From Shigella phage Sf20: a DNA stretch of 64,000 nucleotides. Location of the stretch: the sequence record MF327006; one strand, 5' to 3'. The notes below the pieces were generated by a model. That model ran no database searches. It worked only from the letters and a program-made list of their open reading frames with translations, and was not told the origin of the DNA. The position numbers and the translations under genes are program-made. Positions 44,392-59,661 of this stretch are shown here, one piece after another; within the stretch, counting starts at the first letter, position 1; each line of letters begins with the position of its first letter.

Positions 44392-45366
44392 TCACATCGC
44401 TAACAGAGAGTCCAGGTCATCCAGATCAGAAGCGGAGGAAGTACCGCCACCCAGGTCCAGAGATGCCATCAGGTCATCAGCGGAAGAATCTAACGCCGTG
44501 CTAGCTGCATTAATACCAACTACAGTGCTAGCTGCGGTCATACCAGAATCGAATGCATTCATCTGTGCGTCAAAATCGTCAAGCTGGCTGTTAATCGCTG
44601 CCGCAGCACTGGAAGCCGCAGCACCAGCTACCATAGAAACGCCCATAGTTTTCTTAAATTTGGTTTCCAGTTCATCGAACGGTTTAAACTGGCTAGGCGC
44701 TACAATCTCACTCAGATCAACCATGTTTTCCATCAGATATTTCTGATATGCTTCGTCTTCAATTTTCGGAAGCTGTGATTGCTGCATGAAACGAGAATCA
44801 TCATAGTTCTGGTGTTTATCAACCTTCTTAGCTTTCAGGAGGAAGTTAGCACCAGAGAACACACAAGTTACATCGACCGGAACTTCGCCCATATCGGTAT
44901 TCACGTTAACCATTGCAACGATCTTATCATAAATTTTCTGACCGAAGCGGAATTTGAATACCTTACCTTCATTTTCTGGTGCTTGAGGATCTTTCAGTAC
45001 CAGAATATTTGCGTAGTAAGACGCTTTACGCTTAATCAGTTGCCATTCGGTTTTATCGGTATTGTACAGGTCTTTTTCGTTAATATATTTGCACACAGGG
45101 CAAGAATCAAAATCACCGTGGGTGCTGGAGCAGTTTTCCCAATACCATTTACCATTAACTTTGAAGGAATGGTTTACCAGTTTCACAATCGGCAGACCGT
45201 CTTCTGTCTTAGACGGCAGGAAGCGAATCAGTGCTTCACCGTTACCTGCTGCATCAGTCTTAATCTTCCACTCTTTCGGATCTTCTTTGGAGAAACCGTT
45301 GCCACCTTTCAGTGCGGCCAGTTGAGCTTGCAGTTTGGAAGAATCTTGGCGTTTAAACATATTCAC
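44392..45366 (-). CDS. 32: single-stranded DNA-binding protein gp32
   Basis: Extensive identity to T4 gp32 ([47 protein letters not shown]). Confidence 0.95.
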
Positions 45367-45396
45367 TATTCCTTCTTTTGATTGATTTACTAGACT

Positions 45397-45424
45397 ATTA
45401 TACAGATTTAAATTTACTTGTCAA
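45397..45424 (-). promoter_or_regulatory. sigma70-type promoter upstream of gene 32
   Basis: - strand TTGACA, 16 nt, TATAAT. Confidence 0.45.
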
Positions 45425-46101
45425 CTATTTGTTTCGGCTTTTAATTGAGATATTTCTTTACACTCTTTAACTACTTTAACAAATAATGCTCTTGCTTTTG
45501 CGGCGTCAATAACAAGTAGTTTCTTGTACGCCTTCATTTTAACACTATAAGTTTGCCAAATCAAGTCTTTGGCTACCTTATCGTGTTCGTCGATTATATT
45601 TAGAAAGCTATCTAACAACATAAACGACTCAAACGATATAATCCGATTTTGCAGTAGTTTAAAAATACCGCTTGTTTCGGTTGCGGGATTATATGTAATT
45701 AGCTCTTTAAGAGTAACCCCGCGTTTCTCGGAGAAGTATACCAGACTTTTAATGTCATCGTCAAATCGTGTTGCTGCATCGGTTATCTTTCCTATGTATT
45801 CCATATAAAAGCCGTATGCGTCAACATCAGTGATTTCACCTACCCATGCATCGGTATTAGCTACCAGATTGCTTAGGAATAGGAAGTATAATTCTCTTAG
45901 ATTGTACTTTTCCGCTAATTTTGCGAAATAATACTTATCTCTGCGTTTATTGAATGCGGCATCAGACAACCGCATCCTCCAATTGTATTTTACGCAATCA
46001 TAACGCCCGTTCATGTGAGCTTTCATCATGCAATATAACATATACACAGATTTAGCATTAATTCGCATATCTGGATCTGGAGGAAGACGGTTTCTGATCA
46101 T
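45421..46101 (-). CDS. 59: gp59 helicase loader
   Basis: KSVYMLYCMMKAHMNGRYDCVKYNW...RRDKYYF...FLSNLVAN...SFLNIIDEHD match T4 gp59. Confidence 0.9.
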   Translation of the reverse strand: MIRNRLPPDPDMRINAKSVYMLYCMMKAHMNGRYDCVKYNWRMRLSDAAFNKRRDKYYFAKLAEKYNLRELYFLFLSNLVANTDAWVGEITDVDAYGFYMEYIGKITDAATRFDDDIKSLVYFSEKRGVTLKELITYNPATETSGIFKLLQNRIISFESFMLLDSFLNIIDEHDKVAKDLIWQTYSVKMKAYKKLLVIDAAKARALFVKVVKECKEISQLKAETNS

Positions 46102-46110
46102 ACATACCCC

Positions 46111-46365
46111 TTAAATATCGAGAGTGTTGGTCGGTTCGTCGATCACTCCCTTCCTGAGCGTTCTATTTACTATACATTCTTGTGTGATCTTGTCAATAAT
46201 GGACACCGGAATATACTTCTGATAGTGACCATATTCTATAGAGTTTTCCTCTACAAACTGAGTTGTCGCTTCAAGATAAGTCAATCCCTCTTCAACAACC
46301 AGTTTTTCGATTGCAAGACCGTTTGCTGTTTTATTCGCGGCTTTTACCGCATGTTCATTAAGCAT
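46111..46365 (-). CDS. 33: gp33 late transcription co-activator
   Basis: YLEATTQFVEENSI matches T4 gp33; synteny 59-33-dsbA. Confidence 0.65.
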   Translation of the reverse strand: MLNEHAVKAANKTANGLAIEKLVVEEGLTYLEATTQFVEENSIEYGHYQKYIPVSIIDKITQECIVNRTLRKGVIDEPTNTLDI

Positions 46366-48457: not shown

Positions 48458-51400
48458 ATGGCAGATTTTTCTCAACATTTCAAGGCCACATTTGGCTTTG
48501 ACGCTGGTAATGAAAAGGTCGTCAATGTAGCATTGGCTGATAAGAATGTCAACACCGATGCGGTCAACGTTGAATTTTTCAATTACCATAATGGTATTAC
48601 TCAGTATGACACAACTCGCGGTTATGATCAATACGGAACTACAATCTATCAAAACCGTCCGTATTATGCAAAAGAAGATATCACAAAGCCAGCAGGTGAT
48701 TTTGACCCGACTAAATGGCAAGCACTGCGCACGGACCCACGTTGGGATTATATTGCAGCAACTTCCGGTGATACTCCTTTAAAGTCTGGTGATTATATCG
48801 CAGCAGATGGTCAATTTGCAAACTTGACTTTCTCTATGCCAACTAAACCAGCAGAGGGAGACACTATAACAGTAAAAGATATCGGTGGCAAGTGTGGTGT
48901 TAACGAATTATCGTTCTTGAGTTCAGGACATGAGTTTTACCATAACGGTAATGTGTATAACCGAAAATGGTATTGCACTACCCCGTATGCAATGAACTAT
49001 TTCATCTTTGTTCGTAATCGTTGGCATGTTTATCAGACGGGAACAGAGCCGCGCGGTGTGTACGCACAGCCAGCGATTGATGCTATTCAAATGCAGAATG
49101 GTGATCAGGTATTTCGTCGTAGTTCGTTGGGTAATATTACCTTAGTGCTTCCTAAGTTTGCCAACAATGGCGACATGATCCAGACTACAGACCTTGACGG
49201 ATTAACCGCAACCAACCACGTTACGGTTAAAGTTCATGAGCACGCAGAAGAACAATCAATTGGCACGTCCGGTCTAAAAGAGATTATCGGTAAGCGTAGC
49301 GGTCATGGTGTATTCATCTTTGACAAGACGGAAAACTTATGGCGTTTGTGGGATGGTGATCAGTCTGTTCGTCTTAAACCGATCATCGATGACACTCGCT
49401 TGCAACCTAATAGCTATGTTGCTGTATTTGGTGATCGTGATGTTACTCTGACGCTGCCGACCAATGTCGAGCCGGGTGATCGTATTCAAGTTTCTATGCA
49501 GTATATGCACGGAAACCAGAATTGCCGTATTATCACCGCCACAGAGGATACAAAAATCCTTATGCCGAAAAACATGGTTCAGTTTCCGAAGCGTAGCGAG
49601 TACCCATTCAACGGGACCGACACATGGAAGGAAGTGTCTGAATTGTCGTTCAATGCGGCTAGTGATTATGTACCTTATCTGGAGTTCTCTTATTCAGAAG
49701 GTGATGATGGTAAGAAATACTGGTTGGTGGCACATGCTCACCCGATTGTAGAACGAGTAGATCCGACTCGTAAAGATCGTGTTGGTGTAATTGCACTGGC
49801 TACCCAGGATGAAACAAACAAAAACCATGAAGAGAATCCTAGCGACGAAGTTGCGGTAACACCAAAAATGCTGGCTAATAAAACCGCCAACGAAACTCGA
49901 CGCGGTATTGCTCGCATTGCGACTCAAGCGGAAACGCATCAAGATACTGGTTCCAACTTCCTGGATGATGTTATCGTTACGCCTAAAAAGTTAAATGACT
50001 GTGTTGCTACCGAAGCCCGTCGTGGCGTGATGGAAATTGCAACCCAGCACGAAACCAATGAAGGTTTAGACGATACCCGCGCTATTACTCCTAAGAAATT
50101 AGAAGAACGTCGCGCTTCCGAAGATCTCGCTGGTATTGCTGAAATTGTTCAGGCTGGCGGTAGTGCTGCCGCTCGACGTGGCGAAGCTGGTACAGGGATC
50201 TATAACATCAACGACCATGTTAAAATTGTTACGCCACAAAACATCAACGAAGTCAAGGCGACCGAAACTTCCCGTGGTGTTGGCTATCTGGCAACTGACG
50301 CGGAAGTGCAAGGGGCTACAGAATCAACCCCGCAAGATGCTTTACTAATCACGACTCGCACGCTAACGAAACGTACTGCTACCGAATCGCGCACTGGTAT
50401 CGCTGAAATTGCAACTCAGGAAGAAACAAACTTAGGTCAAAGTGATAGCCATATCATCACGCCTAAAAAGCTGCATACTCGCCGCGCAACGGAAACTTTA
50501 CATGGTTTAGCAGAAATTGCAACTCAACCGGAATTTGACGCAGGTCTTGACGATGCTCGCATTTCTACCCCATTGAAGATTAAAACCTTCTTTGAGAATG
50601 CACAGCGTTTGAAAGTAGATCCGACTCAGGGGCTTAACCTTACTGGTGATTTGTGGCAAGGTATCATGATCAGCGGTCTGGATGCAACCGAAGACACAAA
50701 AGGTGTCGCTAAAGTTGCTACTACTCAGCTTACGGATGCTGGTCAAGATGATACTACAATCATCACGCCTAAAAAGCTGCAAGGCAAAAAGGCAACCGAA
50801 GGTAAAGAAGGTATTATCCGAGTTGGTACTCAAGCCGAAACCGTGGCTGGTGCACTGGCTAATGTAGCAATTTCTCCGAAGAACTTCAAATATGTTGTTC
50901 AGACAGAGGATACATGGAAAGCAACCGAATCGCGTCGTGGCTTCTTGAAAGTTGCTACTCAGGAAAACTGTTTTGTTGGTGATAATCTGCAAGGTTCTAC
51001 TCAAGAACTAGGAAACTACCAGCATGACGGAATTGCTGTTACCCCGAAAGGATTAAACTACGCACTTGCTAATTTCTTACCTAAGATGGCAACCGCTCAG
51101 AATAGTTTGAAATTGGGTAACGTAGAGGCCGCTAAATGGGCGCGTAGAGACATTGACCAGACCATAGAGAGCAATTACACGTTTAATAAAAAAGTTAACG
51201 TGAAGGGCGATTTAGAGTGCTTAAAATCAGGTTCCTTTGAAACTCTGTCTGTGACTAAGAACTCGACCGATGTTCCGAGTAATGGTCATCTGGTGTTGGG
51301 TGAGCGTGGAGTTGACGGTCACACCGGAATTACTCTGCATGGCACAACCGCATCGGAAGGCATGAAAAACTCTTGGTCGATTATCGTTGGTGGTACGGGA

Positions 51401-52530
51401 ACAGCGCAAGTTGTTGATAGTGATGCTATCGCTTTCGGTAAAATCAATGATGGTGGAGTCGTTGAGCATTACGCCTTTGCTATGAAACACAATGGCGACG
51501 CGACAGCATATAGAGACTTTATTGCAGGTCGTAACCTGTATGCGAAACAAGGCGGTTTATACATTGTTGACCAGTCTAATCCGGCAATGACTCGTTCCCC
51601 AGATGGTATGCTGAATATCGGTCACGGTGGAAGTGTTAACATCAAGGCAGGTCATCAAACGTTAACTACAGAGATCGCCGGACAGAAATATCAGATCGTA
51701 CACGCAGGAAACGCTGACGAAGTTCTTAACCGTCAGTTTGTTAAGAATGCTGGCGATACAATGGTCGGTAAGCTGACTATGGATAATGCGCCTATTGTTT
51801 CTGTTAAGCATGAAGCTAGCGCGGCAACCGCTCCGGCAATCGGTAACATCGGTTTCTGGAATATGCGAGTTACTACCCAGAACATCAAAGAAACTTATCC
51901 AGAGAAGAAAAACGGTACTCTGATGCAATGGGGTACTGACGCGGACGGGCTTACCCAGCTTTGGTCCCCTGATGGTACTCATAAACATTATATCCGTTCC
52001 GGTACTGGCGGGGACAGAAATATCAGATCGTACACGCAGGAAACGCTGACGAAGTTCTTAACCGTCAGTTTGTTAAGAATGCTGGCGATACAATGGTCGG
52101 TAAGCTGACTATGGATAATGCGCCTATTGTTTCTGTTAAGCATGAAGCTAGCGCGGCAACCGCTCCGGCAATCGGTAACATCGGTTTCTGGAATATGCGA
52201 GTTACTACCCAGAACATCAAAGAAACTTATCCAGAGAAGAAAAACGGTACTCTGATGCAATGGGGTACTGACGCGGACGGGCTTACCCAGCTTTGGTCCC
52301 CTGATGGTACTCATAAACATTATATCCGTTCCGGTACTGGCGGTCAATGGACCGCATGGGGTGAAATTTACACCAAACAGAACAAACCTACCGCTCAGGA
52401 AATCGGGGCAGTAGTTGCAGAAGGTGGTTTAATGAACTCTATGACGGTTCGTGATTGGATCAAAGTTGGTAATGTTAAAATCATCGCCAATAATCTGACT
52501 CGTACCGTAGACTTTATCTGGGAAGACTAA
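48458..52530 (+). pseudogene. 34: long tail fiber proximal subunit gp34, reading frame interrupted by a 332-bp tandem duplication (ORFs 48458..52108 and 52093..52530)
   Basis: 1216-aa ORF ends ...GTHKHYIRSGTGG + out-of-frame tail; next ORF repeats MVGKLTMDNAP...HYIRSGTGG then continues; deleting one repeat copy restores ~1246 aa (T4 gp34 is 1289 aa). Confidence 0.75.
51680..52343. repeat. perfect tandem duplication, 2 x 332 bp (51680-52011 and 52012-52343)
   Basis: Both copies read identically by eye from GGACAGAAATATCAGATCG... to ...CCGTTCCGGTACTGGCGG; 332 is not a multiple of 3. Confidence 0.85.
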
Positions 52531-53864: not shown

Positions 53865-53872
53865 TATAAATA
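53865..53872 (+). promoter_or_regulatory. T4-type late promoter (TATAAATA) for gene 36
   Basis: Exact TATAAATA ~35 nt upstream of the gene 36 ATG. Confidence 0.55.
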
Positions 53873-55466: not shown

Positions 55467-58406
55467 ATGGCAGATTTAAGCAGAATCCAATTTAAACGTA
55501 CTAGCACTAAAGGCCGTCGACCTGATGCTGGTACGATGAATCCGGGGGAATTGGCAATCAACCTTGCGGATCAATATCTTCTTACTAAAAATGATTCCGG
55601 TGCTATTATCAATTTAAGTTGTCCTCCGGTTTATGACCGCGATGTTACAATGGCAGGTAAGGTTAAAGGTAATAATTATATCTTAAGTAAAACCGCCAAC
55701 TATCTGGAAGATCAGACAGCGAGAGACCTTAACTACTTTGGTGCTTTCCGTACCAATGGTCTTGACGGTTTTCTCGAACTCACGCTAAACGTTCCTCATT
55801 CTTCTGGTGTTCAGCATGGTCGAGGATTTACTTTCCAGTATGGACACACAGGAAACCGTGTAGAAACTTATGGTTATAATAAAGAAGGACAAAAAGCATT
55901 TAGCTATAAAATGTATCATGAAGGTGATAAACCTACCCCATCGGAATTGAACGTTTATAGCAAACAAGAAGTTGACCGTATGTTTGTTAAAACCGTTAAA
56001 CTTGCTACAGTTCCTGTTGATATCGTTGACGGTTATTTTAAATTAGCAACTGCAATGATTCCGCAAAACGGTCGTAGTGTATTTTTCCGTATTCATGGTG
56101 GTAACGGATATAACGTTACCGCATACGATCAAGTTGATATTGTAGAAATTGTTATTCGCAGTGGAAATAATCGTCCTAAAGGTGTTAACGTTATTGCATA
56201 CCGACGAAATACAAACAAATCATTTGATGTTTTGGCTGTTAATACTTCTGGTGATAACTATGATATCTACGTGAAATATCAGCGTTACACTGATAACGTT
56301 ATTGTTGAATTTGGTAAAAGTGTTGATGTTGATCTGGTAGTCCATGACGTTCCCGACTTTGTTGTTGATCGTCCTGCTGGCGATAATGTTATTGGCGGTC
56401 GCGCGGTAACTCTTTTCAACACAGAAAATAAACGTGGTGTGTTGAGTTTTGACGATAACACACAAAATAGTTATGATATTGTTCACTTGAGTAATGATAA
56501 AGGTACTGGTCGGAAATATATTCGTAAATTCCGCAGTAACTATAATGAAATGATCTGGCATGAGACGGTTCAAGGTTCTACCTATCGACTCGCCACGGGT
56601 AGTACCGATGCTCAGGAGATTCTAACCGTTGAATCTGTTAGCTCAATTGCTGGAACTCATAAAGGTAATATTATTTCTGGACGTATGCTGTTAAATGGCG
56701 GTAGTAATGTTATTACCTTGCGGCGTCCTGCTGGTCAATCCAACCATATTGCGTTTCAAGATAATCGTACTGGAGATATTACCCGTCAAGGATGGATCGG
56801 TTATGCCAATGCTGATACTAACATTTTTGAATGGTATAGTGATGTAGGTGGCAGTTCTATTCGTCAACATATTGACGGACAGATCGAACTTGCAACCGGT
56901 AACACAAAACGCGTTTATACTAACGCTCAATTCATCTCAATGAATAGCGACGCCTACCGCATGCTCTACGGTAATTATGGTGCATTCTGGCGTAATGACG
57001 GCGTTAAAGTTTATCTTCTTTCTACTGCCGAAAATGATAAATTGGGCGGGTGGAATGCCTATCGTCCATTCATTTATGATTTAACTTCCGGTAACGTTCA
57101 ATTAGGCGGTGATGGTAACGAAGAAGCATTAACGTTAGAACGTGCTTCTCGTGCCGCTCGATTTAGTAATGACGTTTACATTAAGAAAGGGCTTTTGACT
57201 TTCGACGCTGGTCGTGCTGGATCTCGCGATTATATTCGATTTAATCATTGGGGTGATAGCAATAATGCTCGTGATAACGTTTTGTACATAGAAGATAGTC
57301 AAGGCCGACATTTTAGTACAGAACGTGCGATGGGTACTGGTGCTCTTAAAGCATACTTCTTAGGCGATCTTGAAGTCGGTGGTAAGTTTACTTGGGGTAA
57401 AAATACAGCTACATCTAGCTTTAATATCCGTGCATGGGGTGCTGATGCTCGTAAACAGGTATTAGAATGTGCTGATGAAAGCGGTTGGCATTGGTATACC
57501 CAACGACCGGGCGGTCCTGGTACTGATGCAATTGAATTTTCTATTAACGGTACGGTTAAGCCTAAAGCAATTCATACTGGCGGCAATATCACTATCAACG
57601 GTGCTGATATTGAGTTTAAACGCGCTGGCAATAAGCATTTATGGTTTAGAGATCCAAACGGATTAGAATTGGGTTTGATTTATTGTGATGATGCTGGTGT
57701 TATTCGTGTCCGTGGTGAGAAGTCGACCGAAGTGTGGAAATTCTCGGCAAAACAGATTCATTTAGAAACGGGTACTGCTGGTAACGGTGTTGGTTTAATC
57801 CGTGGTGCAGTTGGTGGTGGTGCGTGGACTCAATGGAGAGACCGTGGTACTGGCTTACAGGTTGACTGCCAACAATCAGAAAACTCAGCACACAACATAT
57901 GGCGAGCGACTCATCAAGGTAAGTACCATCTTGCAGCAATGGGTGTTCATGCATCTGGTGGTAGTGTTGCTAATACCGTTGTTCGCTTACATGTTCATGA
58001 CTCAAACTATGATTTCACTGCTGTTGGTGACTTCACCGCAGGTCGTAACGGTTCGTTTAACGATGTGTACATTCGTTCTGATGCTCGCCTTAAAATCAAC
58101 AAGGAAGAGTATAAAGAGAATGCCACCGATAAAGTTAATCGCTTAACTGTATACACCTATGACAAGGTTAAATCTTTAACCGACCGTACTGTCATTGCTC
58201 ATGAAGTTGGCATTATCGCACAGGATCTTGAGAAAGAATTGCCGGAAGCAGTAACAACCTCGAAGATCGGAGACGGTGATACACCAGAAGAGATCTTAAC
58301 AATTTCTAACTCTGCTGTCAACGCTCTTTTAATTAAGGCGTTTCAGGAAATGAGCGAAGAATTGAAAGCCGTTAAAGCTGAACTAGCGGAACTTAAAAAG
58401 AATTAA
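55467..58406 (+). CDS. 37: long tail fiber distal subunit / receptor-binding protein gp37 with C-terminal intramolecular-chaperone-like domain
   Basis: N-terminus MADLSRIQFKRTSTKGRRPDAG...GELAINL matches T4 gp37; C-terminal ~110 aa begins SDARLK and ends in a coiled coil, resembling peptidase S74 chaperone domains. Confidence 0.8.
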   Translation: MADLSRIQFKRTSTKGRRPDAGTMNPGELAINLADQYLLTKNDSGAIINLSCPPVYDRDVTMAGKVKGNNYILSKTANYLEDQTARDLNYFGAFRTNGLDGFLELTLNVPHSSGVQHGRGFTFQYGHTGNRVETYGYNKEGQKAFSYKMYHEGDKPTPSELNVYSKQEVDRMFVKTVKLATVPVDIVDGYFKLATAMIPQNGRSVFFRIHGGNGYNVTAYDQVDIVEIVIRSGNNRPKGVNVIAYRRNTNKSFDVLAVNTSGDNYDIYVKYQRYTDNVIVEFGKSVDVDLVVHDVPDFVVDRPAGDNVIGGRAVTLFNTENKRGVLSFDDNTQNSYDIVHLSNDKGTGRKYIRKFRSNYNEMIWHETVQGSTYRLATGSTDAQEILTVESVSSIAGTHKGNIISGRMLLNGGSNVITLRRPAGQSNHIAFQDNRTGDITRQGWIGYANADTNIFEWYSDVGGSSIRQHIDGQIELATGNTKRVYTNAQFISMNSDAYRMLYGNYGAFWRNDGVKVYLLSTAENDKLGGWNAYRPFIYDLTSGNVQLGGDGNEEALTLERASRAARFSNDVYIKKGLLTFDAGRAGSRDYIRFNHWGDSNNARDNVLYIEDSQGRHFSTERAMGTGALKAYFLGDLEVGGKFTWGKNTATSSFNIRAWGADARKQVLECADESGWHWYTQRPGGPGTDAIEFSINGTVKPKAIHTGGNITINGADIEFKRAGNKHLWFRDPNGLELGLIYCDDAGVIRVRGEKSTEVWKFSAKQIHLETGTAGNGVGLIRGAVGGGAWTQWRDRGTGLQVDCQQSENSAHNIWRATHQGKYHLAAMGVHASGGSVANTVVRLHVHDSNYDFTAVGDFTAGRNGSFNDVYIRSDARLKINKEEYKENATDKVNRLTVYTYDKVKSLTDRTVIAHEVGIIAQDLEKELPEAVTTSKIGDGDTPEEILTISNSAVNALLIKAFQEMSEELKAVKAELAELKKN

Positions 58407-58448
58407 GGAAAACTCCCAGGGAAGGGAAACTACTAAGGAGAAACGGCT

Positions 58449-58688
58449 ATGGTCTATAATATCGTCATTGGTGCTTTGTCTAGTTTCGGAATGAAACTAT
58501 TGTCAAAGTTAATTAGTGAAAAGATGCTCACTAAAATTTTCTTCTATTGCGCTCGTCGTCTTGCGGCCTATACCAATACGCCAATTGATGATCGTTTTGT
58601 GGAAGAACTTTATAAGGAGTTTAATAAAGATCAGTCAGAAGATAGTAACGAGCAAGATAAACCTAGTGATAGTCAACTACCTAAATAA
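58449..58688 (+). CDS. hypothetical small protein (79 aa) in the position of gene 38
   Basis: GGAG RBS; hydrophobic N-terminus, acidic C-terminus. Confidence 0.4.
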   Translation: MVYNIVIGALSSFGMKLLSKLISEKMLTKIFFYCARRLAAYTNTPIDDRFVEELYKEFNKDQSEDSNEQDKPSDSQLPK

Positions 58689-58721
58689 GAGTACACTGTC
58701 ATAGTTATCTTAGGGCATTAT

Positions 58722-59378
58722 ATGCAAGTTTCTGAAAAAGGGAAAGACTTTGCTATCTCAAATGTCCTGCGCGCTATTTTCACAACTAAAAGCACGGAGT
58801 TGCTCGTACTTCGTGTTTTTGCTGCCGTCGTGTTGTCCATATTGGCATTTGTCGTTTATAGTAAAAACGAGTTATTTGCGCTTTATAAAGAGACTCGTTA
58901 TGAGACTTATGCTCACATTCTCCAGGTAGAGAAAGACCGCAATTTTGATAATGCAGCACAGGAGCAGTTACAGATAGTTCATGTGTCGGCTGATGCCGAT
59001 TTTTCTGCTGTTTTTAGTTTTCGTCCGAAAAACCTAAACTATTTTGTTGATTTGGTGGCATATGAAGGAAAGCTACCGCATACAATCGATGAAAAGAATT
59101 TAGGCGGATTCCCTATCAATAAAACGAGTGAAGAATATCGTAGACATCTTTTAGGTAAATCATATTTTACCGATAAAGATTTCCAGTATATTCCATCAAG
59201 AGAAAAGAAATTAGAGAATATCGATATAGGTTTCATGTATTCTTGTCCTATATTCAATCTCGATAATGTCTATTCTGGTAGTATCGCCATTTCATGGAAG
59301 AATAAACCGGATATTGACATTGAGAATTTAGATACTCTTTGCAATCAATCTGCCAGAATCCTCGGAAGGATTAGATAA
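58722..59378 (+). CDS. t: holin T
   Basis: 218 aa, same length as T4 T; KNELFALYKETRYETYAHILQVEKDR...QLQIVHVSADADFSAVFSFRPKNLNYFVDLVAYEGKLP...YSCPIFNLDN...ARILGR match T4 holin. Confidence 0.9.
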   Translation: MQVSEKGKDFAISNVLRAIFTTKSTELLVLRVFAAVVLSILAFVVYSKNELFALYKETRYETYAHILQVEKDRNFDNAAQEQLQIVHVSADADFSAVFSFRPKNLNYFVDLVAYEGKLPHTIDEKNLGGFPINKTSEEYRRHLLGKSYFTDKDFQYIPSREKKLENIDIGFMYSCPIFNLDNVYSGSIAISWKNKPDIDIENLDTLCNQSARILGRIR

Positions 59379-59384
59379 CTTAAA

Positions 59385-59415
59385 GGGGAAGCCTTTCGGC
59401 CTCCCCTTCTTTTTA
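59385..59415 (+). terminator. rho-independent terminator after t
   Basis: GGGGAAGCC-TTTC-GGCCTCCCC hairpin followed by TTCTTTTTATT. Confidence 0.55.
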
Positions 59416-59661
59416 TTGGCGCATAGAAGCCCCTGAATCACATTTTGACGCTGTATGATGAAAACATGTAGCGTACCAGTCATCGGCTTGTTTGTCTTCG
59501 TCAGAAAACGCGTAATTGCGTTGTATGCCGTTTTCTACTTTGACCAGTGCAATAGCTGTTTCTGGAAGATCAATCAATCGGACAAAATCACCGTCTTCCC
59601 ACTCCACACGGGCAATATCATAGCCCATCTCAAAGTATACAATCGCTTGTTCTAATTTCAT
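59413..59661 (-). CDS. hypothetical protein (82 aa)
   Basis: ORF. Confidence 0.4.
   Translation of the reverse strand: MKLEQAIVYFEMGYDIARVEWEDGDFVRLIDLPETAIALVKVENGIQRNYAFSDEDKQADDWYATCFHHTASKCDSGASMRQ

Follow-up and report, generated by a model that had tools for sequence, protein, structure and literature searches.

Distal tail fibre locus of Shigella phage Sf20: a gp37 ending in an S74-type chaperone domain, a gene 38 most likely located elsewhere, and a small ORF of the PM2 gp l family

How is the tip of a long tail fibre built when gene 37 (g37) is not followed by a gene for gp38? In T4, g37 and g38 lie before the holin gene t. T4 gp37 forms its own receptor-binding needle without an S74 domain, and it depends on the chaperone gp38, which is absent from the virion. 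The homologous fibre shaft of Shigella phage Sf20 is encoded at the same genome position, but gp37 of this phage carries an S74 domain and no gp38-sized gene comes next. A first-pass annotation of this DNA concluded that the fibre tip probably folds without gp38 and that gp37 itself binds the receptor. The stretch analysed here, called the window, comprises 64,000 nucleotides of sequence record MF327006. Its DNA is 86-97% identical to that of Krischviruses, by which its source is classed as an RB49-like Krischvirus. The features of the locus are collected in Table 1.

Table 1. Features of the distal tail fibre locus of Sf20, in window coordinates
Feature	Position	Strand	Description
T4-type late promoter consensus	53865..53872	+	TATAAATA; upstream of gene 36; consensus match only
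Gene 37, long tail fibre distal subunit precursor	55467..58406	+	ORF, 979 aa, 108.5 kDa
Predicted mature gp37	55467..58076	+	aa 1-870, 96.4 kDa
DVYIR, last strand before the predicted cut	58062..58076	+	aa 866-870; proposed site at which the gp38 N-terminal domain docks
Peptidase_S74 intramolecular chaperone domain	58077..58403	+	aa 871-979; long helix at the end
Codons of Ser871 and Lys876	58077-58079 and 58092-58094	+	within SDARLK
ORF79, probable lysis accessory gene	58449..58688	+	79 aa; strong AAGGAG ribosome-binding site; PM2 gp l homologue
Holin t	58722..59378	+	218 aa; Phage_holin_T, E 4.5e-61
Terminator-like hairpin	59385..59417	+	GGGGAAGCC-TTTC-GGCCTCCCC; one A.C mismatch; T-rich run after; read directly from the sequence

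The identity of gp37 and of its C-terminal domain is well defined. The product of g37 matches the family of long tail fiber protein distal subunits (PHROG 1699, E 7e-190), and its residues 871-930 match Pfam Peptidase_S74 (PF13884) with an E value of 1.3e-11 and 45 bits, twice the family cut-off of 22 bits. The motif SDARLK begins at residue 871 (nucleotide 58077), which gives a C-terminal piece of 109 residues (12.1 kDa). Ser871 and Lys876, the lysine five residues on, constitute the Ser-Lys dyad, and both are invariant among 24 aligned homologues. The motif aligns across SDxRxK with SDRRIK of gp37 from Salmonella phage S16 (6f45_A). The cut position was placed by this alignment and by the published cleavage sites of S16 and the fPS phages (PMC7917993). 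When residues 751-979 were modelled as a monomer, pLDDT was 84-95 across most of the chaperone domain, with one 10-residue block at 70. A Foldseek search of the PDB returned, at E < 0.05, only chaperone domains, namely those of MyRF ICA (7dc3), an endosialidase (3gw6) and GA-1 (3gud). The first-pass annotation had likened the last ~110 residues to an S74 chaperone, with SDARLK as the Ser-Asp motif, and had proposed a profile search and a structure prediction of the trimer among its checks. Its coordinates and quoted residues are accurate, and the profile search and the monomer model both recovered the domain. By profile, catalytic residues and fold, the C-terminus of gp37 is a chaperone domain of the S74 type, and it is predicted to be self-cleaving.

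A domain of this kind could in principle have decayed and lost its cleaving activity, in which case full-length gp37 would enter the virion. This is extremely improbable, because the Pfam score is double the cut-off, the Ser, Asp, Lys and other motif residues are invariant, and the chaperone fold is confidently predicted. Furthermore, the domain is kept at 94-96% DNA identity among relatives, even where the sequence upstream of it has been exchanged. A search of the literature found no demonstration of gp37 autoproteolysis or gp38 docking for a Krischvirus, and no report in which RB49 gp37 or gp38 was analysed in virions by mass spectrometry.

As to gp38, the first-pass annotation described the surroundings of g37 correctly. 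Between the stop of g37 (58406) and t there is a single ORF of 79 codons (ORF79), and g38 is not directly downstream. Neither tblastn with two Krischvirus gp38 proteins nor a search of the six-frame translation with a gp38 profile detected gp38 in the 64-kb window. The lack of g38 beside g37, however, does not imply its lack from the genome. In RB49, g38 is displaced ~106 kb from g37 and a small ORF takes its place (Desplats 2002; Trojet 2011). An S74-ended g37 without an adjacent g38 is the RB49 arrangement that has already been published. The displaced gene, RB49p079, occupies positions 45367-46143 of the RB49 genome. Since the window spans roughly 96-160 kb of RB49 (at g37, window position 55467 equals RB49 position 151717), it ends short of an RB49-type g38 locus at 45 kb.

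The relatives tell where g38 is to be expected. The distant locus is filled in every one of the 41 database records that match the window across the 3′ end of g37 into ORF79. In W115, for example, a gp38 of 261 residues with Gp38_N and GP38 domains is encoded at the same distant locus as in RB49. At least 13 records without the g37/ORF79 junction of the window have an empty distant locus. Phage kvi, also a Krischvirus, represents this arrangement. It shares with the window the S74 end, the DVYIR^SD site (cut at the caret), ORF79 and t, but its g38 directly follows g37, giving the order g37(S74)-g38-ORF79-t with an empty distant locus, and its gp37 is only 40% identical to that of the window overall. 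An S74 domain and an adjacent gp38 are found together in kvi and also in a metagenomic locus, L004. The two classes of junction and locus are not perfectly clean, because KFS-EC mixes them: it possesses the distant g38, yet the 3′ end of its g37 is unmatched to the window at the DNA level. From this pattern among relatives, g38 is most likely present in the remainder of the source genome.

The fibre locus of RB49, Phi1 and JSE has 83-92% DNA identity to this region of the window. The distal part of gp37 differs from theirs and, because it is 83-89% identical to its best matches, is regarded at the sequence level as a new allele. The structural counterpart is the tip of T2, T6 and S16 (PDB 6F45), in which the gp37 chaperone is cut off and a gp38 adhesin docks. 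As in S16, gp37 of the window has the motif SD-x-R-[IL]-K and an equivalent predicted cut position, and as in the T2/S16 tip, the gp38 proteins of its relatives combine Gp38_N and GP38 domains. It is unlike S16 in that g38 is not beside g37 and in having DVYIR instead of DLNVS ahead of the cut. The motif DVYIR^SD was described in fPS phages, where it was analysed against the S16 structure and proposed as a docking strand for gp38 (PMC7917993). In the window, the DVYIR strand stands directly before the cut site, a placement shared with kvi and the fPS phages. The tip NDVYIR^SD is common to the window and kvi, which has an adjacent gp38, and D866, V867, I869 and R870 are invariant among the 24 aligned homologues.

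We are thus highly confident that Sf20 carries a standard RB49-like distal fibre module, in which gp38 from a distant gene caps the cleaved gp37, and that ORF79 is separate from fibre assembly. In this module, gp37 would be made as a precursor of 979 residues, and its last 109 residues would act as the S74-type chaperone that makes the fibre trimerise and fold. The Ser871/Lys876 dyad would then cut the chain between Arg870 and Ser871 and release the chaperone. The cut would leave the DVYIR end exposed, on which a single gp38 adhesin may dock via its N-terminal domain. The docked gp38 would bind the receptor, for which RB49 uses OmpA or O antigen.

The opposite reading, that of the first-pass annotation, is a phage without any gp38, whose gp37 tip becomes the receptor-binding site once the chaperone is removed. 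S74-ended proteins that bind or cleave a receptor directly do exist, as in the L-shaped fibre of T5 and the endosialidase of K1F. Such precedents from other systems, the failure to detect gp38 within the 64-kb window and the distal third of gp37, where relatives vary most, would all agree with a gp37 that recognises the receptor itself. Nevertheless, the window does not extend to the 45-kb locus, the distant g38 is present in all 41 relatives that share the g37/ORF79 junction, and the docking motif DVYIR is kept. In RB49, where gp37 has a self-cleaving chaperone and gp38 is the adhesin, the host-range mutants E230K/Y231S map to gp38 (Efimov 2022). Receptor binding by gp37 itself is therefore very unlikely. 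The accompanying statement that the fibre folds without a gp38 chaperone is fair, as gp38 proteins of this kind serve as adhesins and not as folding chaperones.

The small ORF in the usual position of g38 belongs elsewhere. ORF79 matches phrog_402 (E 5.5e-20), and PF26925 (Phage_PM2_Gpl) is recorded on all 15 of its close homologues. In our local Pfam search, PF26925 was unmatched by ORF79 or its kvi homologue. A purpose-built profile of the ORF79 family matches gp l of the corticovirus PM2, a protein of 51 residues, over residues 4-51 with 35.3 bits. On these similarities, ORF79 is a member of the PM2 gp l family (PF26925/phrog_402) and not a gp38 replacement. PM2 gp l (P18) is a lysis factor that disrupts the outer membrane (PMC6356626). 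Its gene follows gp k and, like ORF79, stands beside a holin gene, although downstream of it, whereas ORF79 is upstream. ORF79 also differs from PM2 gp l by an additional helix at its N-terminus and by its acidic tail, and its phage group has spanins as well. Its predicted structure consists of three soluble-looking helices and the acidic tail, and its maximum 19-residue hydropathy of 1.45 is borderline for a membrane protein.

For small ORFs that follow g37 in other phages, takeover of the gp38 slot by an adhesin or chaperone has been raised (Trojet 2011). ORF79 might accordingly be taken for a very small adhesin or for a chaperone specific to the fibre, as it fills the usual g38 position, is predicted to be co-transcribed with g37 and has homologues that come after a fibre or tail-tip gene in T4-like, FelixO1-like and SU10-like phages. 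We regard this as most unlikely, since kvi and L004 have ORF79 in addition to a full-length gp38 encoded next to g37. Unlike adhesins, it is 95-100% conserved across Krischviruses with differing g37 ends, and it is without glycine-rich or Trp-prong features. Its homologue gp l serves a tailless virus, PM2, and the homologue in Vibrio phage 1.090.B lies just after a lysozyme-like gene in a neighbourhood free of fibre genes.

The gene neighbourhoods point instead to lysis. Four different fibre ends are followed by a homologue of ORF79 and then directly by holin T, and in Mijalis a homologue lies upstream of a gene that its annotators call a putative holin. Counting against a lysis role, the homologue in an SU10-like podovirus is placed between a tail-needle gene and the gene for the adaptor. 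In T4-like and FelixO1-like phages the homologue also comes after a fibre gene, so that its ties to the fibre and to the holin are inseparable there. Linkage to holin and lysozyme genes, together with homology, suggests that ORF79 is probably an accessory lysis protein. A more specific role, that of a small helical lysis factor acting as the functional partner of the T-type holin alongside the spanins, is a tentative proposal to which we give slightly less than an even chance. The fact that Krischviruses already have the spanins pseT.2/pseT.3 counts against a lysis role for ORF79. The neighbours of its distant homologues are members of phrog_4038, in which a hydrophobic helix at the N-terminus is combined with a coiled coil. 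They were considered as spanins and rejected, as their Rz-like match is weak (E 0.003-0.005); the putative holin gene of Mijalis occupies the corresponding position.

The late promoter consensus has six matches in the window, as many as chance gives. Two of these belong to the fibre region: one precedes gene 34 (48422) and the other gene 36 (53865). Gene 34 itself shows an apparent duplication of 332 bp at 51680-52343. Since the match at 53865 is the last one before the end of t, genes 36-37-ORF79-t are probably read as one late transcript. The hairpin behind t, which a terminator consensus scan did not report, would terminate this unit. On the preferred reading, ORF79 has no part in fibre assembly and is grouped with holin t; its product is probably an accessory protein of lysis, transcribed together with 36-37-t.

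For the biology of these phages, a missing neighbour in a 64-kb window does not equal a missing gene. The host range of this phage should be looked for in gp38 and not in the gp37 tip. Within the Krischviruses, g38 occupies one or the other of two loci but not both, a documented case of an adhesin gene that has been relocated. A small ORF long labelled as of unknown function can now be assigned to the lysis-factor family of PM2 gp l. If ORF79 indeed acts in lysis, it may, for example, weaken the outer membrane or tune the holin, and the gp l family would be common to Krischviruses, FelixO1-like phages, marine vibriophages and the tailless corticovirus PM2. This would make ORF79 a part of the lysis cassette that has gone unrecognised in well-studied relatives of T4.

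The C-terminus of gp37 is an S74-type intramolecular chaperone domain, for which profile, catalytic residues and fold are concordant, and its self-cleavage is predicted. The ORFs neighbouring gene 37 match the gp34, gp35 and gp36 families. The first-pass annotation had read such a domain, with SDARLK as its cleavage motif, from the sequence and had recommended a search for the Peptidase_S74 profile; the Pfam match lies well above the curated cut-off (table below), and SDARLK is indeed present, starting at aa 871 (nt 58077). Cleavage before Ser871 is predicted to yield a 96.4-kDa mature gp37 and a 12.1-kDa fragment of 109 aa. When the last 179 aa were searched against PDB sequences, the distal fibre subunit of Salmonella phage S16 (6f45_A) was matched (E 8e-5), with 'vsSDRRIKkd' aligned opposite 'irSDARLKin', and the MyRF autocleavage domain appeared as a weak match. 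Across an alignment of 24 gp37 homologues, D866, V867, I869, R870, S871, D872, L875, K876 and N878 are invariant, and the sequence upstream of these cut-site residues diverges freely. In an AlphaFold2 model of aa 751-979 (pLDDT mostly 84-95 across the domain, falling to 70 in one 10-residue block), the chaperone domain consists of short strands and, at its end, a helix of 30 residues. Every Foldseek match of this model to the PDB with E < 0.05 is a solved intramolecular chaperone domain, namely MyRF ICA (7dc3; E 6e-5, TM 0.67 on target), endosialidase (3gw6) and phage GA-1 (3gud).

Features of the gene 37 to t region (window coordinates)
Feature	Position	Strand	Remarks
gene 37	55467..58406	+	979 aa; PHROG 1699 'long tail fiber protein distal subunit', E 7e-190
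Peptidase_S74 ('chaperone of endosialidase')	gp37 aa 871-930		Pfam E 1.3e-11, 45 bits; curated cut-off 22
ORF79	58449..58688	+	79 aa, between gene 37 and t
holin t	58722..59378	+	Phage_holin_T E 4.5e-61
hairpin and T-run after t	59385-59417		read from sequence; unlisted by consensus scan

The 37-t region shares 86-92% identity with phages E26, ECD7, Makalu, Phi1, JSE and RB49, and the 20 kb upstream of it share about 97% with kaaroe, JEP8 and RB49-type genomes. These identities place the window in Krischvirus, as an RB49-like relative of T4. For the gp37 tip region, FL37 (89.4%) and W115 (88.9%) are among the best matches. Several relatives (GEC-3S, ELT4, kaaroe, FL38 and MIZ2/3/6) match the window at 94-96% only downstream from about 57986-58056, that is, from 20-90 nt before the predicted cut site. 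Since their match begins just before the cut, the chaperone domain and ORF79 behave together like one conserved block, and the stretch immediately before it like an exchange point. Around the cut, the window reads ...SFNDVYIR^SDARLKIN and phage kvi ...NFNDVYIR^SDDRLKIN. Comparison with the S16 structure has named DVYIR^SD as the cut site, and the DVYIR strand has been proposed as the docking surface for the tryptophan prongs of gp38 (PMC7917993).

The adhesin gp38 is not encoded in the window as far as searches reach: gp38 of RB49 and W115 gave no significant tblastn match within the 64 kb, and a four-sequence gp38 profile run against all six-frame segments reached only E 1.3 at best. In the RB49 record, g38 lies at 45367-46143, g37 being at 151.7 kb. 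Alignment of g37 on g37 makes the window correspond to about 96-160 kb of RB49, so that this distant locus cannot fall inside it. A search with window 57400-58700 (g37 3' end, spacer and ORF79) returned 58 records, in 41 of which the match spans g37 into ORF79 and in 17 of which it covers the ORF79 part alone. A second search with the RB49 g38 locus and its flanks (1501 bp) covered the query, g38 included, in 43 records, including all 41 of the former group and KFS-EC, which has the distant g38 yet a g37 3' end without a match to the window. At least 13 records, all from the ORF79-only group, match the flanks only; their two pieces together span about 630 bp and the query 1501 bp, so that this site lacks g38. 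The phage kvi (MN850615.1, 86087-98392) carries, 3' of gene 36, a 922-aa gp37 (Peptidase_S74, E 1.4e-11), a 259-aa gp38 (Gp38_N, E 6e-20; GP38, E 1.5e-69), an ORF79 homologue and t in this order, and direct reading of its distant locus revealed no g38. Thus, g38 of Krischviruses occupies one of two mutually exclusive places, either directly after g37 as in kvi (at least 13 records) or about 106 kb away as in RB49 (43 records), and the window-type junction is always paired with the distant g38 (41/41 records). One carrier of the distant gene, W115, has an intact gp38 of 261 aa there. In RB49, G+C-rich hairpins with T-runs stand on either side of the displaced g38 (within 45330-46180), and no TATAAATA, the T4 late-promoter consensus, is visible in the 60 nt upstream; the locus looks like a self-contained cassette.

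What stands in the place of g38 is, as the first-pass annotation stated, a lone 79-aa ORF, preceded by a strong AAGGAG ribosome-binding site after the gene 37 stop. In a consensus scan, TATAAATA was located upstream of gene 34 (48422) and of gene 36 (53865), with no further copy between the latter site and the end of t; the six matches in the window equal chance expectation and thus count as consensus matches only. A single late transcription unit probably comprises genes 36, 37, ORF79 and t.

We conclude that ORF79 is not a substitute for gp38. It is 95-100% conserved among Krischviruses, even across differing g37 ends, and in T4-like contigs its homologue immediately precedes holin T and itself follows one of four different fibre ends: gp38 (L004), a 524-aa gp37 without S74 (L005), three 100-aa ORFs (L008) and the gp38 of kvi. 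ORF79 matches phrog_402 (E 5.5e-20), and the precomputed Pfam family PF26925 'Phage_PM2_Gpl' is assigned to 15/15 of its database homologues. ORF79 did not match PF26925 in a local Pfam profile search, and a separate profile was therefore built from 22 family members; it matched PM2 gp l (35.3 bits, residues 4-51) and not gp k, the end of which gp l overlaps. gp k and gp l correspond to P17 and P18 of PM2. P18 is described as a lysis factor that disrupts the outer membrane (PMC6356626). The ORF79 model has three helices (2-21, 24-41, 45-69) and a disordered acidic tail. A 196-aa protein (P0054) has a hydrophobic N-terminus and then six repeats of YKYTDTPADKRSVDDLHKR, which match T-x-T-P-x-D, a motif conserved in the family.

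For a role of ORF79 in lysis the chances appear evenly balanced. In two distant phage contigs (L009, 4356-4757; L003, 354-725), a protein of 123-133 aa begins within the ORF79 homologue; it belongs to phrog_4038, has a hydrophobic helix at its N-terminus and a long coiled coil, and is weakly similar to Rz-like spanins (E 0.003-0.005). A gene annotated as a putative holin takes the equivalent position in the FelixO1-like phage Mijalis, and a lysozyme-like gene precedes the homologue in Vibrio phage 1.090.B; a SU10-like podovirus, with the homologue between tail genes, is the exception. As the spanins pseT.2/pseT.3 are also present in RB49, any such role would be accessory.

Within gene 34, a 332-bp unit is perfectly duplicated in tandem (51680-52343; 300 nt at 100% identity in the repeat search). 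This length is no multiple of 3, so that the last 31 residues of the gp34 ORF (48458..52108) are out of frame and the genuine C-terminal sequence goes on in ORF 52093..52530 (phrog_972 positions 1077-1246). Either the repeat arose in assembly or it is real and inactivates the proximal fibre. A 170-kb metagenomic Krischvirus-like contig (L008, 5047-5950) has a 1014-aa S74-ended gp37 and, behind it, three paralogous ORFs, each about 100 aa long. Their starts, MGYWVGS, MAGWIAG and MGWWVDG, are reminiscent of the gp38 N-terminus with its tryptophans. These ORFs lack Pfam matches as well as homologues in the window, and may be small alternative adhesins. In an E. coli record, a 303-aa protein (P0033) fuses the N-terminal half of a gp38 to a gp37 chaperone domain; it is probably a misassembly or a recombinant.

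In the proposed mechanism, gp37 would fold with the aid of its own S74 domain, which would be released at Arg870/Ser871, and gp38, encoded outside the window, would cap the cut gp37 and bind the receptor. Efimov et al. found E230K, alone or together with Y231S, in the gp38 of their RB49 host-range mutants. Receptor binding through gp37 itself, as first suggested, is very unlikely. The accompanying idea that the tip folds without a gp38-type chaperone is reasonable, since gp38 of this fibre type is an adhesin; gp38 itself is expected at the distant locus. For RB49, it is already published that gp37 ends in a self-cleaving S74 chaperone and that gp38 is the adhesin (Efimov et al.), and that g38 is displaced, with a small ORF where it would otherwise stand (Trojet et al.). 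The two exclusive g38 positions in the genus, the membership of ORF79 in the PM2 gp l family with its linkage to lysis genes, and the gene 34 duplication appear to be new.
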